Shown here piece after piece: positions 326 to 42,267 of a stretch of 64,000 nt of DNA. Origin of the DNA: Laetmonice hystrix (lineage: Eukaryota); assembly GCA_965235115.1 (NCBI GenBank), contig OZ249436.1, positions 16,184,001-16,248,000 on the forward strand, written 5' to 3'. Under the pieces are notes generated by a model. That model was not told the origin of the DNA. It saw only the letters and a list, made by a program, of their open reading frames with translations, and made no database searches. A program made the translations under genes and the position numbers. Every line of letters begins with the position of its first letter. The first letter of the stretch is position 1.

Positions 326-3300
326 GTTGCAGCACAAACGGGTCATAATGTAACAATGGTTGAGTTGTCTGAAGACATTCTTAACAAAACAAGCACTAAC
401 ATTCAGAAGTCCTTATCTCGAGTTGCGAAGAAGATGTTCGAAAATCAAGAGGTAAGATACAGTACTAGATAATTTTGTTTGTTTGACATGGGTTGCCAAT
501 GATACTGTTCATTCAGCAATTGAGTCTTAGCAGAAAATACAGTGTATGTTAAGAGGCAGTGTGAAATAATTTCTGACCTGTTGAGGAATATGACTGTATG
601 CAGGTGTCATTACTGTTAATTTTTCAAAATCTATTACACTTATCCCAGGAAGGAGGGAAATTTATGGCAGAAACAATGGGTCGGCTGACAATGGAGACAG
701 ATGTTTCAGCTGGTGTGCAGAATGCAGACCTTGTCATTGAAGCCATTGTTGAAAACATTAACATCAAACAGAAGCTTTTTGCAACTCTTGATGAAGCAGC
801 TCCTCAGTAAGTAAATAAATAGAACTACAGTGGAGTCCAGTTATAACGAACATAGTTAACAAATTTCCGCTTATACAGGGTTTCCGCCAGAAAATAATTA
901 ATGGGGGGGGACGGGCGAGCCCGCCGAAGGCGGGCCAGAACGGGGGCTCTGAGGGCCCTCCCCCAGAAAAATTTTGTTCAGGAACTCCGGAGATGCGTTT
1001 TCCTGGCCTCTCAGAGCGAGAATCTTCACTAAATCTTATCTACCACCCAAAAATCCACAATTTTTACGCCAAAAACACAAAATTGGCAGTGACAGCCAAC
1101 AGAATCATACCAACATTTTAAATAAATGCATCATTACAATATTATTCAACATCAGAAGGGAGGATTGTCAGGATTATTCATAGACATTTCGTTGTCGACG
1201 TTGAAACTATGTTCAGATACCTTTAAAAAAAACACTGCTCTGCAGATTGATGGGGGGGATATCCCCCTCATGTCCCAATCATGGGGGGGATAAATCCCCC
1301 CCGTCCCCCCTCTGTATGAAACCCTGTTATATAGTGGAAGTTATTGTCAGGAACAAAATCATTTTCTGTTATGATACTGAAGGCCTTTTCAACCCCAAAA
1401 GTGACAACTTCCCGGCTATATCGAAGTACACCAAGTGGCAACAGACCCCAAGTTGGCAGGCGTAAGCTGCCGGGCTTTTGCCAGCTTTTGCCATCTGATG
1501 GGCTATGGACTGTAGGCTTAGGCCAATCTATCTGGGAAGAGAAGCCATTGCAATTCAGTTTGTATAGAACATTAGTAACCTGGGAGTATGTACCCAGTGT
1601 TCGAATTTGCCCATGGCAACCATTGCCGTGCCTTCTTTGGTCTAACTCTTTTGCTGTGGTGCCATTTTAATTTGGCCTCTATTGGTGGCATTATAATGCT
1701 TTGCCCTTTTCTCCTCTTGCCTGGATGCCCTCCCATTGATTGCATCCATCGTCAGCGATGTCTTAATACTTTCTTAAAAATGTTTTCACTCATAATCGGC
1801 CATGATAATGTGTAGGGTCTGCCTTCTTCTAAAGTCTTCATCATTGATTGGTTTAGGTTTTGGTGGAACTTGCTTAGTGTGATAATCTCTGTCTGTTTTT
1901 CTCTTCCCCCCACAAAAAAATCAATTGGTGATTATAGGCGAGGCCTACCTAGAGAGCAGTCTAGCGGCAGTTATGGACCTTAAGGAATAATGGGGAGATC
2001 CCTTTGGTGCCTGACTGAAACAGGCATCACCCTCTTAGAATTTCTCCATGATAACCAATTTTTTCCTCCGTCCCAAGTACTTTGTTATAACTGGACTCCA
2101 CTTTAATAGTTAATCATGATTTATGCCTAGGCCTAATGGTCTTTTTTGAGGAATTTTATCAAGTTCCATTGTTATCAGATATTAGTTTTAAAATATTATT
2201 GAAACTTTTGAATTGCTGTATTTTCAATTGATTAAATTGATCCGATAAAATCTCTCTCCCAAGGAGCACAATATTTGTGAGCAACACATCCTCTCTTCCA
2301 ATTGCTGCGATTGCAGCAGCAACCAAAAGACCAGACCGTGTCTCAGGCCTGCATTTCTTTAACCCAGTGCCTGTCATGAAACTTGTAGAGGTATGTGCTT
2401 TTCTATTTTTGGGAGGGGGGGGGGGTAGACTTGCTTGTAAAAAAAATTCCTGTTGATATCTTCTAACTTCATTAAATCAGGGATACTAAAATATTGTCCA
2501 GTCAATATCCCAAATATCATCAGGTGGTGAAGACATCTGAGACAAGTGAAGACACCACAAAAGCCCTTCAGGAATTTGCTCGAAAGATGGGGAAAACATC
2601 TGTCCAGGCAAAGGTAAGCAGCAAGTATATTGGTAACACTTAACCCAAGAGATTTTTCAGGAAATATTATCTTAAAAGTTAAGGGGAATAGTTACAAAGT
2701 TGAAAGGTATAACCTTATAAAGTATACCAATGATTTTGCTTTACAGACCTGACTGAAATTAATTTGTTGAAATTTTATTCTATGTTTAAGGATACACCAG
2801 GCTTCATTGTGAACCGTCTCTTAGTGCCTTACATTATGGAGTCAATTAGAATGTTGGAGAGAGGCAAGTTAAAAACCTTTTTTGGATCAACAAATCTGTA
2901 TGGTTCTGCAACATTAGGTTCAGTATTATCATAATAGCATTCTGCGACAATGACTTAATGATCAGTCCAAAGACCGTGATGTTTGGACAAAGGCATGCTG
3001 TCAAGATGGGGTCTACAAGTAATTTCCAGCATGTAGTGTTAGTAGAAACTGATGTTCCCGGCACAAAACTGCATCCTGAAGGCCTTGATAGGTATTTCAA
3101 CACACAGATTAAGAGCTAGCTGGCAGTGTGCTGCATGTCTTTGTCCGAGTATTTGAATTGTGCACAAAAACTGTGACGTTGTGTTTCTATAATTATTAGT
3201 ATTGTCGCGGACGCTATTCTTTCTGTAGATTGTACTCTTCAAGAAGAGATTTTCTTTCTGAGAGAAAGGTCCTAAGGGTCAGGTGCAGCATACAAACTTA

Positions 3301-6300
3301 TTTGCACTTTGTTAAACATAAACATGCTTTGTTATGTATTAGAAAAGTACAAATGATTTATGACCTAAGAGGCTGGGCTATTTACGTCTTGAACTAAGGT
3401 GATGCCACCAAGGAAGACATTGACGTTGCTATGAAGTTGGGGGCTGGTGTTCCAATGGGACCAGTTGGTCTCGCCGACTATTGTGGCCTTGATATAACAA
3501 AGTTTGTCAATGATGGTACAGTTAACCGTTAATGAAATCTAATTTAAGATGGCATACAATATATCCCTCAAGGGTAGAAAAATCCAACTTTTGGCCACAA
3601 GCCCGGAGTCGTGTTGTGGGCAAAAACGCATTACGTCGGACTAGTTTAATGCATTTGCTTGGGTCTTGGGGGCAGTCCGACCTGAAATAACGCTAGTCCT
3701 GGGCATCGAAGTACCGGATTTTTCTACCCCTGTCCGTTCCTCCTCTTCTACATCCAAAGTTGAATATGTACAGTTTCCCCCCACTGCTTCTATACTAAGT
3801 TACCAATATTTGTCACTAGGGGTCGCTAGCAAGGAAGACATCGACACTGCAATGAAGCTAGGGTCTGGTGTACCAATGGGACCGATCACCTTGGCCGACT
3901 ATGTTGGACTTGACACATTGAAATTTATCAATGATGGTAGACTACACTATATTTTTCAGCATTATTTTCTTTCTGAACAGTTTTTAACAGATTTTGACTG
4001 GAGTAACTTTTTTTTATTGGCTCTGTGCCTTTCTACTTAACTCAGGTACAGTAATTTGTGTGGAGTGACATAGTCTCTTATCACATAAGATGCAATTAAG
4101 GAGGTTCGAGGGTATTTTCGAAATTATTGATATCCGCCTGATTTTTTCACAGTTTGTAGTCCTTACGATGCAGGTTTGAAATCTAAATTTTTTTAGGGGG
4201 TTTCCCGAGTTAGTTTTTTTTCTAAAAAATAAAAAAGATGGAGAAATGTTTACTATGGCCGCCTATGGGAAATCAAGGTTTTTTCAAGCATTTTGTCCAT
4301 TTTTATTGATAAATTAATTTTAGAAATGGCTTAAACTGCAGTATATTATAATTCAAAGGGTATACTTCGTAAAAAGAAAAAAGGGGGTCCCCGACTTAAT
4401 TTTTGAGCTATACGCCCCTGAAGTGACAGCCCCGCGTGATGTGCGCGTTGCTCTGGGCCGGGCCGTCTGGGGCTCTCCCGGGACCCTGATGTAGGCGTAT
4501 CCCGGCGTTAACACGCGTAGGCTATAAGGAGGCGCGCCATGTACTCAAACTTTGCACTAGCTTTAGCTCATAATTATGAACCTTTGTATATGTGACAGTT
4601 TGATAACGATTCATAGCCGAGTTTATGAAAAATTTCGAGTTCAAAATGAGTGTGTGTCAGCAGCGGTATAGCGATGGCAGCTGCCCTCTCGCTGGGACGG
4701 CCACACCGCTGGCACCACTGTCCGCCCCCCTCCTGGTCGGCCACGTAAACAGTGTCGTAATGCAGACAACTCACACGGAAAACCAAATTTTAATCATCAG
4801 AAATACTTTTCTTACAGTTACTGAGAAGTACTGTATAAGAATTTTACCAAACAAACTATAAAATATGGATAGGCAGCATGTCGTAAAATGTTGCTGAGCA
4901 GAGCCCGAAGTTGGCAGCTGAGAAATACACTCGAACCTCCTTATAGTGATTGGATGATCTGAATACAGAATACTCAGTAGTACAGTAAACCCTTTCAAAT
5001 TATAACATTAACTTTGGATATTATTTGGTACTCAAACAAAAACATAACATGAATAATCACAGAATGTTCTCCTTTCGCATGATCTTTGACCTGACATGTT
5101 ATTGCTTGCATGTCATCAGTCATGTGTGTCCTTTAGCACTGCAATTTGAAGTCGATAGCATCAAATGCATTACTTTGAAACAAATTGACTGACTGAATCA
5201 ATTCTAATTAGGCAATAATTTGATTTTAAAATACAACTAAGGCAGTGTTTTTATATTTTATATTAAGCAAACAACTGTTATTTGAAAAAATTTCTGTTTG
5301 AAAGGAGTGATAACAACATGGATTCAACTAATGTGAAGTTTACTGTACTGAGTCATTACTAGCATGGTTAGATACCTCAGAACAAAGTCCTCGCAACACT
5401 GTCAGACCTTGTTAATCCCTACTTCTTTAATCCGTATACCTCACAATCCGAACACACTTTCTAGTAACTGCTTCTACCATTTTCTATTTATAGAGTAGCC
5501 TCAGTGATTTCCTTTAAACTCTCCTTGTTGTCACTATATCAAAGATTTACTTTAAAAAAATCATTATACAGACGCCCGTATCTGTGGACTGCATTGTATA
5601 GTAGAGGGTGTACTTCTGGCTGGGGATGCTTAGAATCGAAGTTGAGATGTCACAAGTCAAGATGCACAGCCTGGCGTAGAGAAGCATTGTCCATGACAGT
5701 CAAGTAGATTTTACTCTTGCTTCTGAATGATCAATGTTCTTCTGAGGCCTTAGGGTGGAATTATTCTGTAACTTTGGCTGTAACCAATCAAGTACAGAGA
5801 CATAGCCATACCAAGGCATAACATGTTAGTCTGAAGCCAGCCTATCCTCTGTAGACTGTTTTTACTGTAGAGTTTAGTTTTGACAGTGGAAGCACGTCAT
5901 CACTCAGACTCATCTAGAGAAATGTGGGCAGGCCGGACAGGGAGATTTTTGAAAAATAAATATTAAAAAAAGAACAAGAAAATGATGCTGTTCCCACTAG
6001 GCCTAAGTGATTGAATGCAAAACTTTGACAGAGCCTAGGCCTACCTGCACTGCAGCTCGGTTAGCTGTCAGTAGCCAGGCCGTGCATCACGTGGCGCTCG
6101 CTAGGCCTGCATAAGAGAGGGGTTCAGGAAAGCCGACACTGAAACACTGTTCCTGACAATTCAAATTCGGTACATAGGCCCATGTTTTGACTTTTGGGTT
6201 TTTAAATCGGCGTGCTGGGAACTGCAGTGGGCAGAATGCAACTACGTCACCGGGGCAAAGCTTAGGGCCATCTCAGCCAGTTCCATTTTTGACTGGTTTC

Positions 6301-6803
6301 ATGCACTGACCTTATAAAATAGAGGATATACGGCTTCTGTATAATGATTATAGCCAGTATAGGCAGAGGAACTCAAGCCTCAGCCTGAGCACTACCCCAG
6401 TGTCACGCAATAATTCCTAGATCCACCGATAAGTATTCACCAGTAATTAAGATCGACTTTATGTATTTAACAAGCAAATGCAGATTTGAAGTATAAAAGT
6501 GTGTATGTGGCAATGATATTATATTGTGTGTAATGGTTGTTACTTAATTTTATCTCGGTCTTTTTTCTAATATCTGTCTTTTTTCTAATAACTGTTGAAA
6601 ACATTGGATGTAAACTTAGAGATTTATGCAGCAGTAACCCAGTATAATGAATTGTATTTCTCAGGTGCTACATTTATTCTTTAGGTTGGCATGAGAGTTA
6701 CCCTGACCAGCAGCTCTTTGAACCATGTGAACTCCTTAACAAGGTAGTTGCTGAAGGTAAACTTGGCATAAAGAGTGGCGAAGGCTTCTACAGCTACAAA
6801 TAA
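326..6803 (+). CDS. HADH: Mitochondrial short/medium-chain 3-hydroxyacyl-CoA dehydrogenase, 5'-partial
   Basis: Exons 326-451, 649-806, 2264-2390, 2524-2613, 2791-2863, [3399-3515 or 3820-3936], 6685-6803 (TAA), with consistent phases. Motifs: [34 protein letters not shown] (catalytic His/Glu), [15 protein letters not shown], DIDxAMKLG.G.PMGP, GKLG.KSGEGFY. The GxGxxG exon lies upstream of the window. Confidence 0.96.
828..2103. mobile_element. Tc1/mariner(pogo)-type non-autonomous element in a HADH intron
   Basis: TA-CAGTGGAGTCCAGTTATAAC at 826-847 and its inverse GTTATAACTGGACTCCACTT-TA ending at 2105, with a TA target duplication. Confidence 0.75.
876..1326. mobile_element. MITE nested in the previous element (CAGGG ends, hAT-like)
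   Basis: TIRs CAGGGTTTC / GAAACCCTG flanked by the direct repeat TTATA (871-875, 1327-1331), with internal G/C-run hairpins. Confidence 0.7.
3399..3515 (+). CDS. HADH: HADH alternative exon copy A (117 nt, phase 1-1)
   Basis: ctaag|GT GAT GCC ... AAT GAT G|gtacag, encoding [39 protein letters not shown] with no stop or indel. Confidence 0.9.
3571..3731. mobile_element. ~160-bp foldback/MITE between HADH exons A and B
   Basis: AGGGTAGAAAAATCC is inverted relative to GGATTTTTCTACCCCT, with an inner pair GTCGGACT / AGTCCGAC. Confidence 0.6.
3820..3936 (+). CDS. HADH: HADH alternative exon copy B (117 nt, phase 1-1)
   Basis: cactag|GG GTC GCT ... AAT GAT G|gtagac, encoding [40 protein letters not shown] branch-point-like TACTAAG lies at 3793-3799. 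Confidence 0.9.
4096..4760. repeat. Probable DNA-transposon relic (TTAA-GG start, Kolobok-like) in the last HADH intron; right end not found
   Basis: Starts TTAAGGAGG, has two related internal motifs GGGGT(T/C)(T/C)CCGA(G/C)TTA, and a CpG-rich interior unlike the host intron. Confidence 0.3.
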
Positions 6804-14400: not shown

Positions 14401-17400
14401 ACGATTCAACTGGAATTAATCAAATTAGACTATTAGAAAACTTGTTAAAATGGATTGGTATTCAAATCTGTAAAAATTATAGATAAATTAGAGACTGCAG
14501 ATAGTTGTATAATGGGTTCTTTGCTGCCAAGTATTGAATACAGACAACCATGGCAGTTTGTTATGGAATATCGATTGTCTAATACCATAACTCTGTACCT
14601 GTGCCTGTTCTTCCATCTCCGTTTTGAGGGTATCAAAGTATGTTCCTTGTCCGTCAGTGTCATCATAATCCTTGTTAAACATTTCCTTTAAACGTTTCTT
14701 TTTTTCAAGACGTTTTGCCATCACCTTACGTTGTCGCTCCTCTTCCCGTGTCTCATGGATTCTTGCTGAAAAGTTTTCAACAATGTTCCATCAAATACCT
14801 TTTTAAGATTCTTATCTTCAATGAGCTAAAGATATGCTAAACCCTAAGCTCCCACTAACTAGACCCTGCCTAAGTAGGCTGTATTGTAGCATGTCTCTAG
14901 GGCTGTATCCCCTCATAATGAAAGCATGCTAAATCTTGACCATAAAGAATATTAATTAGTAATTAAGACAGGGTGTCTTATAGTCTACATTTGTAAGAAT
15001 CACTCAAAAGTATGACAAGTGAGATCCTTGTAACTTCTTGCTACAAATCTACAGAAAGCTTCCTACGTTTATCATCTTCTGCATCCTTCTCATCCTCCTC
15101 GCTATCTTCATTTTCTCCTGCTTTGTGTACCTCTCCTGTCTCCAGGTCCTCATAGTCTCCATACATTTCGTCTGAAAATGAGAATTCATGTAAACAGGTC
15201 TTTTATAAAGAAAACATTTTCTACAGTGTAGAGATTTTCTATCAATAAAGACTTCATAACTGCATCAGTTAAAGTTTAAGTGCCAAAGGAGTTAAAATGG
15301 TACATGTTCATTGTTCTGGCTCTTTACAAAGCATCAAGAAAATTGTTGAAAATTTATCCTATGAGCATATAAATTTCTTTCTGATATTCTTATCAAGTTA
15401 TTTGGTATCTGTTATCATAAGAAATCAGAACAAATAAATTATAGCTTTTATACCATCATTCTTTAGAAGGGTCTCTGCATCCTCTGTATCATCCCAAGTC
15501 CCAGTCACGAAACAGTCCCTTATTTGGTCCATCACCTGTAAAACAAAATCCAGTTTAAATTCAAGATAAATCTTTTCGACCTGATTACAAAAAGTAGTTA
15601 AATACCTTTATTGATACTTGCAGACAGTTTTGAAAAAAAACATCACCGAGAAAATATTGAGCATGTTTTATCTCCTGTTAAAACTGTTAAAACCTGCTTA
15701 AAAGTTAGGACATACATCTTCCAGGTCCCAGTCTTGTATATGGTCAAGCCTGAAGAGAGAGCAGTCCAAGTCATTGACGGTTGCCTTCCGACTCTTGCTG
15801 ACCTTGTGTTTGGCTACTGTGAATAGCCCTCCCACCTGACTGTTGTTTTCTTGCTCATCTTTATCACAAACTCCATCTGGATATGAAGGAATACATGTAC
15901 ACTTTCCTTGGCAAAGGGATTAGGAGATAGATGGTCAGAGGACCATAAATTGCATTAAAAACAAGACTAAAATGCTGAATAAAAAAATAAACAAGCCCGA
16001 CATGGGACTCAACTGGCTTAACCTACATTGGTAGCATAGTTCAACATTTCCTTGATGTTGTGTGAAAATCAAACTTGTCCGAGATATTGGCCATGTGAAC
16101 CCATGTAGGCCTGCAGACCTACTTGCGGCACATGGATTTCGCTCATTATCGAACTCGTCCAAGATATTGGCCATATGATCTTATGTTCAAAGTTTTGTTG
16201 AAATCCATTAGAATTTGTGGCAGTTATCTCGTTGAAACCAAATTGTTTATGGACAAACAGGGATACAGAGGGACGGACGACACACCATCACATAAGCTCG
16301 ACTGGCTTCCAGCCAGTAGAGCTAAATATTGTTTTAAACTGAATTCTACAACTACCACATCCGCGTCTGCTTTGTCACAGTTGATGTGATTATCAGGCAT
16401 TTCTTGCCGGATTTCGAGTTTTAAAGTCAGTTTAAGTCACTACTAAACAGCTACCCTCTGCCGGATTTTAAGTTTTAAAGTCAGTTTAAGTCACTACTAA
16501 ACATCTACCCTCACGACAACCCTTCTTACCGCAGCCATAGACAAGTTTCCTCAAGTTGGGCGTTTCATTTTGCCTTCGGTAAAATGCTTCCTGAGCTTTG
16601 GCAGCTAAATTGTCTTTCCATTTTAGGTGCCCTGAAATTCAATGACAGAGCATACAGTCATCACAGATCATTAGAAAGGCCTCATTCTCTATATTTGATT
16701 ACCATAACAGTGAGAAAGTGCACCATGGACGAGCACAGATCTAAACAGTCAGACCTCGTTAATCCATGCTTCTTTAATTGTATACCTCACAACCATTTTC
16801 TATATAAAATGATTCAGTAATTTGTTTCATAAACCGAACACATTTTAATGGGCACCAAGTTGTTCTGATAACGAGCTCTGAAGTCCTGTATATTATTTGT
16901 TCTGACCTGTTTCTTCATCTCCGCTTTCATCTTCCTTCATAATTTCATCTTCATCCTCATCGTCATCATTACTATCATCTTCACCACCATCTTCATCCCC
17001 ATATCCAGATTCATCCTCATCTTCATCCTCATCCATGCCATCATCTTCTTCATCAGATTCGTTTTGACCTGCATCACTTCCCTTGGAGTCACCCTTTTTG
17101 ACTTCAGTAGACAGTGCCACTTCTGGCACGAGACCACTTTCACTCCCCATTTTGTCTGGTTTTGGCCTTTGAATTAAATGCTTATCCTCTAAGTCTGAGG
17201 AACTGTCTTCATTACTGCCCATAGCATCCTCTTCCTCCCTGTCCTCTTCATCTTGAGAACTACTATTCTCCTTTTCCTCTTCATCCGTTTCTGATTCTCC
17301 ACTGGTTTTTTCAGAAATTAATTTTCTTTTACCTTTGCTAGATCTTTTAGTTGATTTGAATATTGTGGAATTTCCTTCTTCCAAGTCATCATCACTGTCA

Positions 17401-40008: not shown

Positions 40009-42267
40009 TTATTCCCTCGATGCCTGTCGTCTGTGTGGACCCGGCTGCTGAGGTGCACCACCAGCAGGGCTAGATGGTGTCACTCCGTAGATGGTCTGCA
40101 ACAGGAAAACTCGTCAGAGGCAACCCGAGACCATATTTGGTATAAAATCATTCAGCAAGCGGGACAATCGTAGCAGATATATCAATCATTTAATTTCTCA
40201 ACCCCAGTCTTCGTATTTCTGGTCGTGTCTGTAAAACATGTTTCTTATCTGAACTTATTGACACTGATCACAGATAGTCGACTCACATGACCTTTCAATT
40301 TCGTGTCTCCGTCAGGGCTTAATGATGTTAATGTTCTTCATCATGGCTCTGGCAACTTTCTTTATATTCCTAAACTTTTAAACTAGTATATTTAATTCAT
40401 ATATAAAGAAATATAAAAGAAAGAAATTAAACAGATTTTTTAAAACAACCAGTTCACAGGAATTAGAACTGACCAAAAAGCATCATTATTTTCCAGAATA
40501 AAGAAACAAAGGGAAGTCGAATTTGTGAAAAGAAGAATTGCAATTAAAAACATCAGAGAAAGCCAAAAATAATTCAAAATATCACATCGCTTACGCTATA
40601 TCAAGAGCTTGGACACATGTACATACCATAGGTCCATACTACCGTTACCATAATATGTGTATGGGTTTGGGGTACTTGCAAGTATTATGTTTGCACCTTC
40701 ACCATAATTACTCATATTTAATTTAATAAAAAAGCGATCTACATATATATAGCAGTAATAATCCATTAGCAGACCTATGCGAATGAACTTTTGGAAATGC
40801 ACAGTATGATTCCAATGTTCTGAGCCTTAAAAATGTCAAGAGCAATGCCATAGGCAGCATACTTCAAACCTGAAAAATATTCTATTAATTAACCAAATTG
40901 GCCAAAATATTTTATTCATTGGGGGGGGGGGGGGGGCAAATAAAGTCATTTTTCAACTGGGACCCCAATTCTCATGCAAGGTTTGACCCTATCCAATTCT
41001 TAAATGTCTTGAATTTTCATAGATTTCACTGAAAAATCTATTCATGAAAGTTTAGATGTTTCACAGACAATCTAGACTGCAAATGTTCTTAAATTGCAGG
41101 ACATTCTCAATTTGTTGAACTGTTGGGGACCATGTGTGCAGTCCTTCAGCTTCTACTCATTACTCTAACTAGATCTTCATTTAATTATTCACAAACATTT
41201 TATATTTACCTGCCACCAGGTAGAAGCATCCTGAACAAAACATTAACTTTTTTTTATGTCTTAAAATATGCTAACCATATGTAATTGCAAACTTTTATAC
41301 AGTGTGGTAAATACTAAAAATGTAAAAATATGTAACTGTCTAGCCAAGCCCAAGGCAATTTACAAGAGGGCTGCCGCTTAGCATGAAGCAGTGCCTGTGG
41401 TTTTATTGTTAGATAATACGTATTTGAGGTAAAATTTGAGGCTTTATTTCTGAGGAAAAGTTTTTGGTCTCGGGAGAAAAAGAGAAAGGGGATTCTAGGG
41501 AGAATAAACTTTTCCCTGACACAAGCCGACAAGGCAACTACCTAGCTATTGCAACACACCTGCGCCCCTGGGTATGATGTAAAGCGAGCAGCTGGGGAGG
41601 CTCTCTCAGAGGAGGATGTGAGAGCAGAGAAGCGACTGTACATTCCAGATGACACTGCTTGTTTGGCCTGTGCCTGTGGTAAATGAGGCAGTCTGTGGTC
41701 ATCAGCTGTTCCTCTTGGCCACGATCCATCAGAAGATATCCTTGAAGTGGCCGATGATGGGGCACTGCTTCTTGCAACTTGCAATTGAATGTTATCTGAT
41801 AGTGCTAGGCCTACGTCTTGATTGACTAAGTGATTTTTCAACTTCCTATTGATTTCATAGGCTTTTTTCAGGAGTTCCTCCGTTTCTTCTTCAGTTAGAT
41901 TTGCTTCATCCATTTTCTTAATAATATCGTCTGGATTTGTAAAGTCTATGTCGAATACAATATCGCTTTCGCCTGCTGAAAACCAGGGGGGCTGTTCCTT
42001 GGTCTTGGCCTGCTTCATCTTCCTTACGTGTCCTTCCTTTCCTTTCCCTGCGCTTGGCCCTGGCCCTGGCCCTGGCCCTGGCCCTGGCCCTGGCCCTGGC
42101 CCCGGAGCTTGGCCTAACGGGGTCGGTAGGGGGCCGAAATCTACACCCGACGAAGACAAAGATTGAACGTCATCTTCTACGACAAATTTCCGTTGCCTCG
42201 TCCTCTTAGGGTTTGAAATAGCAGATTTATCTTTACTTTCAATACTTGAATTCACTTGCGCTGCCAT
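40009..42267 (-). CDS. Unidentified protein with a (Gly-Pro)8 tract and a short predicted helical segment; 3' exon structure uncertain
   Basis: 241-codon ORF 42267-41542 with a good ATG context and a CAG|GTGTGT phase-0 donor after 41560. Candidate downstream exons: 41230-41210, 40369-40287 and 40095-40009 (TIYGVTPSSPAGGAPQQPGPHRRQASRE*). No family recognised. Confidence 0.65.
42055..42102 (-). repeat. (GGGCCA)8 coding hexamer microsatellite
   Basis: Eight perfect TGGCCC units on the + strand, encoding (GP)8. Confidence 0.95.

Follow-up and report, generated by a model that had tools for sequence, protein, structure and literature searches.

The window, the stretch of 64,000 nucleotides analysed here, belongs to a genome assembly of 627 Mb in 35 contigs, and its start falls within an HADH gene on the + strand, as delineated by reading of the sequence, translation of the joined exons and tblastn with four full-length homologues. 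Before the window, at a distance of about 870 nt, tblastn places the first coding exon (L009:9013-9129). Within the window, and always on the + strand, the gene continues with exon e1 (326..451), exon e2 of the NAD-binding domain (649..806) and exon e4 (2524..2613), each placed by translation and tblastn, while exon e3 (2264..2390), which carries the Ser and His motifs, is placed by Pfam as well and matches positions 108-148 of PF02737. Exon e5 (2791..2863) was set by translation and splice-site reading and ends at a GC donor (gcaagt at 2864). It is followed by two homologous exons, A (3399..3515) and B (3820..3936), both of which match positions 22-59 of PF00725, and by the terminal coding exon T (6685..6803), which is present in a single copy, matches positions 62-97 of the same profile and holds the stop codon.

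Since e3 matches PF02737 and A, B and T match PF00725, the exons describe a two-domain, HADH-type 3-hydroxyacyl-CoA dehydrogenase. In tblastn all of them are collinear with four full-length HADH proteins, the NAD-binding domain coming first and the C-terminal helical domain after it. The translation contains the motifs NTSS, HFFNP, LVE and VNR, which match columns that are invariant across 41 aligned relatives; the Glu of LVE and the Asn of VNR we take to be the catalytic partners of Ser and His in HADH. The catalytic pair itself is given for the human enzyme as Ser137 and His158 in section 3.3 of PMC6333283. The nearest full-length protein retrieved, P0070, is 66-68% identical to the HADH translation. 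In word-index protein searches with exon A, exon B and e2, the best identity was 80-85% on the exon and 65% on e2, and an exhaustive HMMER comparison of exon A with representative proteins gave no identity above 80% among the 150 matches listed out of 717. Judged by its sequence, the gene is assigned to the mitochondrial short-chain L-3-hydroxyacyl-CoA dehydrogenases.

The exon pair A/B

Exons A and B are each 117 nt long, both continue in phase 1 behind the final G of e5 (2863), and both are preceded by AG and followed by GT. They are adjacent on the same strand, separated by an intron of 304 nt (3516..3819, + strand) of the U2-type GT-AG class, and nothing coding lies between them. The two exons differ at 31 of 117 bases and at 10 of 39 residues, the remaining 29 residues being identical; identity by codon position is 30/39 at the first, 32/39 at the second and 24/39 at the third, which makes third positions the most diverged. 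The initial annotation had described two exons of equal length and phase with AG/GT ends, 304 nt apart, with ten residue differences and many silent third-position changes. The coordinates and translations match that description exactly, and the codon-position pattern agrees with its last point.

The same annotation held the flanking introns to be unrelated, and this was confirmed by two comparisons. Aligned without gaps over 100 nt, the flanks of A and B have an identity of 0.28 upstream and 0.32 downstream, and local alignments of the 200-nt flanks score below the shuffle mean, with 281 of 300 and 268 of 300 shuffles scoring equal or higher. The introns around A and B are no more similar than random sequence. 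A falsely duplicated haplotype segment, that is, an artefact of the assembly, has next to no probability as an explanation of a pair in which the copies are 26% different, the flanks are unrelated and the duplicated unit is precisely an exon.

With four full-length homologues as queries, tblastn found each of the other HADH exons once across the window and the 10 kb preceding it. A search of the whole genome, in which 12 of 12 candidates were scored, gave seven HADH-like matches, all of them at this locus, with no HADH paralogue and no retrocopy recording a spliced form; the genome thus has no second HADH gene that could take over part of the work. The lone downstream terminal exon (6685..6803) had been taken as a sign that the gene as such was not duplicated, and both searches uphold this. 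The sequence evidence thus describes an old duplication confined to one exon of a single-copy HADH gene.

Selection on the two copies

By the Nei-Gojobori method, A and B show 15.8 synonymous differences over 26.8 sites and 15.2 non-synonymous differences over 90.2 sites, which corresponds to a dS of 1.16 (imprecise, as the sites are few), a dN of 0.19 and a ratio of about 0.16. Ten columns show no variation across 118 distinct relatives, and A and B each keep all of them; both exons also exceed the PF00725 cut-off of 22.1 bits at the same profile positions, with scores of 43.3 (A) and 47.2 (B).

Neutral drift was simulated by letting one copy diverge from a B-like start, with 20,000 runs per divergence, and a run was counted as a pass when the frame stayed open, AG and GT were kept, no more than 10 residues changed and the 10 invariant residues were retained. 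Passes amounted to 1.3% at 0.15 substitutions per site, 0.2% at 0.20 and 0.01% at 0.29, with none at 0.40 or 0.58; these percentages are rough figures, the criteria having been set after the data were seen. As yardsticks, half of dS is 0.58, and all the observed divergence placed on one copy comes to about 0.33. Taken together, the simulation, the kept invariant residues and the dN/dS ratio make long-term neutrality of either copy unlikely. The proposal of an old duplication with both copies under purifying selection is therefore sustained, the A-to-B comparison giving a low dN/dS ratio with neither copy decayed. A and B both appear to have been translated through most of their history.

Divergence from the family consensus

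Comparison with relatives points to B as the more canonical copy, near the family consensus, and to A as the more derived one. In word-index searches exon A as a query found 5 proteins and exon B found 254. The first panel, of 118 distinct relatives, was retrieved mainly with B and is biased accordingly; the second was retrieved with A by exhaustive HMMER and comprises 143 regions from the 150 matches listed out of 717. Even in this second panel 104 regions are B-like, 25 are tied and 14 are A-like, and the majority has the B-like state at positions 4, 10, 29, 33 and 37 and the A-like state at positions 2, 16 and 34. A is derived at about seven positions (4, 10, 23, 24, 29, 33 and 37), and B at about four to five (2, 16, 24, 34 and perhaps 23). 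Within the B-biased panel, the states of A at positions 23, 24 and 29 are absent from the 118 relatives, and A has Ile where Thr fills the column in 97% of the 118 regions.

An exon that is so seldom matched, that carries such states, and that has a purine-rich stretch (gaactaag) directly before its acceptor and a weak donor could be one that is rarely used, or was recently abandoned and is still undecayed, with B as the working exon. We regard this as doubtful, however, for long-term neutrality is improbable by simulation, A keeps its ten invariant residues, its frame, both splice sites and a PF00725 score nearly twice the cut-off, and B has derived states of its own at positions 2, 16, 24 and 34 and a donor that is equally weak. 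A recent loss of use would still be compatible with the sequence. The rare states Val10, Cys29 and Ile33 of A are also seen in exon-sized HADH fragments of other eukaryotic contigs (P0147, P0157), which marks them as tolerated states.

The two copies share states that are rare elsewhere, namely Val18 (5%) and Asn38 (4%) in the panel of 118 relatives, which places the duplication within this lineage and not deep in animal history. The exon itself is old, since exon-sized fragments from other organisms have the same boundary residues (P0025, P0072, P0146-P0152).

Place of the segment in the enzyme

In human HADH (1F0Y_A, E 1.8e-14) the segment encoded by A or B aligns with chain positions 225-264, and in P0070, for which a predicted model was used (pLDDT 92.8), with residues 200-239. 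In that model residues 200-239 form a helix (204-215), a Gly-x-Pro-Met-Gly-Pro loop, a second helix (221-228) and the opening 10 residues of a third (230-243), and six of the ten A/B differences sit in the last two of these three helices. The available text of PMC6333283 describes the HADH dimer interface as formed by the C-terminal five-helix bundle alone, with the active site in the inter-domain cleft. The segment had been placed within the helical C-terminal, dimer-forming domain in the initial annotation, and by this description, together with the model and the alignment to 1F0Y_A, the placement is correct at the level of the domain. From the model and the same part of PMC6333283, a duplication or deletion of the segment in the five-helix dimer bundle is unlikely to be tolerated.

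Human HADH (1F0Y and others) has the same two-domain architecture as the gene described here. In a motif count over the retrieved proteins, vertebrate HADH included, the segment was never present twice in one protein. The earlier statement that vertebrate HADH has one such exon accordingly stands at the level of the protein, and for the protein only. Among the retrieved proteins no pair was found that differs solely in this segment, and a cluster look-up for eight proteins returned no isoform members.

Splice sites and exclusion mechanisms

The donors of A (gtacag) and B (gtagac) are the weakest of the gene, each with 5/9 matches to the consensus and no G at +5, as against 6-8/9 for e1-e5. The intron upstream of the pair is GC-AG, its donor being the sole non-GT donor in the HADH gene. 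Weak donors on both exons fit a regulated competition, of which they are no proof. The A-B intron houses a MITE-like dispersed repeat (3569..3733, no strand assigned), about 165 nt long and bounded by terminal inverted repeats of 17 nt. Scoring yielded 39 further copies, 80-90% identical, on many contigs, from among 125 candidates; before this insertion the intron would have measured about 139 nt.

Several devices that make paired exons exclusive were considered. Exclusion by frame shift and nonsense-mediated decay (NMD) was ruled out, as 117 is divisible by 3 and the A+B product is open; inclusion of both exons and skipping of both are thus in frame, and NMD does not police the choice. Incompatibility of U2 and U12 sites was also ruled out, all donors being U2-type GT or GC and none AT or GTATCC-like. 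Steric hindrance would require that the donor of the intervening intron be less than about 50 nt from its branch point, and the sequence lends it no clear support as an enforcer of A/B exclusivity. The branch-point-like motif nearest to B, tactaag at 3794-3800, lies about 20 nt before that exon, and further motifs occur 7-24 nt after the A donor, all of these being putative branch points. AGs at 3547, 3566, 3710, 3758, 3772 and 3798 follow the branch-like motifs near the A donor, so that the motifs lack the AG-free zone described for distant branch points. A crude scan for RNA duplexes over 13 region pairs, with 100 mononucleotide shuffles each, reached no better z than -1.95, and the 32 inverted repeats found were all of chance-like size. 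One pairing of 19 nt, 79% complementary and of chance-like strength, joins the intron upstream of A (3317-3335) to the 3' end of exon A near its donor (3494-3512). Altogether, no hard-wired cis mechanism enforcing exclusivity was visible at the locus in the frame, the spliceosome type, the intron or the duplex scan.

Joint inclusion of A and B has to be weighed against this background, as no cis barrier to A-to-B splicing was found and the joined product is in frame (927 nt, no stop); it would be an HADH in which 39 internal residues are repeated in tandem. Such a product is nevertheless improbable, because it would place two and a half extra helices in a five-helix dimer bundle and because identical retention of the 10 invariant residues would be surprising in copies that occupied different structural places. 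The motif count, in which the segment never occurs twice, also speaks against it, and the two-stretch matches that were inspected turned out to be joined part-genes or internal repeats longer than the segment.

Proposed use of the two exons

An intact old pair, selection on both copies and a single structural slot make either/or splicing the best reading, and A and B are probably used as alternatives, in the forms e5-A-T or e5-B-T. In this proposal, one exon of a single-copy HADH gene would have been duplicated in tandem long ago, with both copies kept as coding. Splicing would then yield two enzymes of roughly 309 residues. The ten differences between them, out of 39 residues, would be spread over three successive helices of the C-terminal bundle, through which the subunits dimerise and which lines one side of the active-site cleft. 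What argues for alternative rather than joint inclusion is that A and B have retained identical invariant residues, those of a single structural slot. Because no hard-wired exclusion is visible, the choice of exon would fall to competition between the two weak donors, together with trans factors or RNA structure. The A form would carry more of the unusual states, clustered in the second and third helix. In sum, the age of the duplication and selection on both copies are supported by the sequence, and mutual exclusivity of A and B is likely.

A more specific version, in which HADH is switched by tissue or metabolic state, the A form has a different acyl-chain preference or dimer behaviour and A/B heterodimers may form, since one gene would supply both subunits, is possible, and we consider it rather unlikely.

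Comparison with known exon pairs

Pairs of homologous exons that arose through tandem duplication form a well characterised class, as set out in PMC9013439, PMC9741552, PMC8373072 and PMC5740500. They are predicted from neighbouring exons of one gene that agree in length and phase, are homologous and have intact splice sites (Hatje et al. 2017, PMC5740500; Kassiopeia, PMC3923563). As in pairs of the WebScipio/Kassiopeia type, A and B are neighbours of the same length and phase, homologous and with intact splice sites, and they form a further case of a common and well described kind. Validation in Hatje et al., according to the available text of PMC5740500, required junction reads from each exon bridging the other and none joining them; 855 of 6,541 human candidates were validated, candidates having been admitted at a very low similarity threshold. 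Unlike the human pairs validated there by junction reads, A/B is a pair predicted from genomic sequence.

Exons 4a and 4b of OGDH are an ancient duplicated pair in a mitochondrial enzyme, the isoforms of which differ in regulation (PMC7969005, available text). The same text attributes their exclusivity to distant branch points, which lie 25-41 nt from the 5' splice site, restrict the length of the intron and exclude transposons. HADH is likewise a mitochondrial metabolic enzyme with an old duplicated exon pair, whereas its A-B intron has a 165-nt repeat insertion and no AG-free zone. In PKM, a swap between the homologous exons 9 and 10 retunes the enzyme. A homologous swap also retunes the enzyme in the case of the alternative exons of coq-2 in rhodoquinone-making animals, as the available text of PMC7434440 describes. 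Both of these switches have shown functional consequences, whereas for the HADH pair such consequences are hypothetical.

The UbiA family has three loci in this genome, an open frame of 346 aa that lacks introns and two genes that are split (G000 C30:1596260-1596952, C1:18955820-18958316 and C4:16903963-16905470). At the sensitivity of the search no tandem duplicate exon was seen at these three loci, so that nothing ties the animal to the rhodoquinone example.

HADH is absent as a whole word from the supplements of Hatje et al. 2017, which contain a candidate pair of 45-nt exons in HADHB, a member of another protein family. The literature searched, a scope that excluded subscription journals and preprint supplements, held no description of HADH exons that are duplicated or mutually exclusive, and the few papers that combined the two subjects are, by title and abstract, livestock RNA-seq surveys; within that scope and those supplements, the remark that no such description was known for HADH holds good. 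The A/B pair should be regarded as a prediction, well supported and of a common type, and not as a discovery. If both forms are made, a single gene would supply the penultimate step of mitochondrial beta-oxidation with two enzyme versions, and ten natural substitutions would mark the positions of the C-terminal bundle that tune HADH. A and B would also constitute a homologous pair that is in frame when joined and does without the usual hard-wired exclusion devices, and pairs of this sort need trans-acting or structural control, which is still poorly understood. Should the regulated switch prove true, it would be the first described for HADH.

Other features of the window

No Pfam match was obtained for the eight open frames of at least 130 aa in the window between 7000 and 64000, and no RNA family of Rfam matched across the whole window. 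In the e2-e3 intron, the stretch at 880-1330 is edged by inverted G-runs and C-runs and resembles another inserted element. The B-T intron has a 21-nt inverted repeat (4097-4117 and 4923-4943, 95% complementary) enclosing about 800 nt, which include a GC-rich stretch near 4380-4760 and may be a further transposon. Downstream of the gene, a 54-nt unit is present twice at 16405-16512, with 94% matches, and a perfect (TGGCCC)x8 microsatellite lies at 42055-42102.
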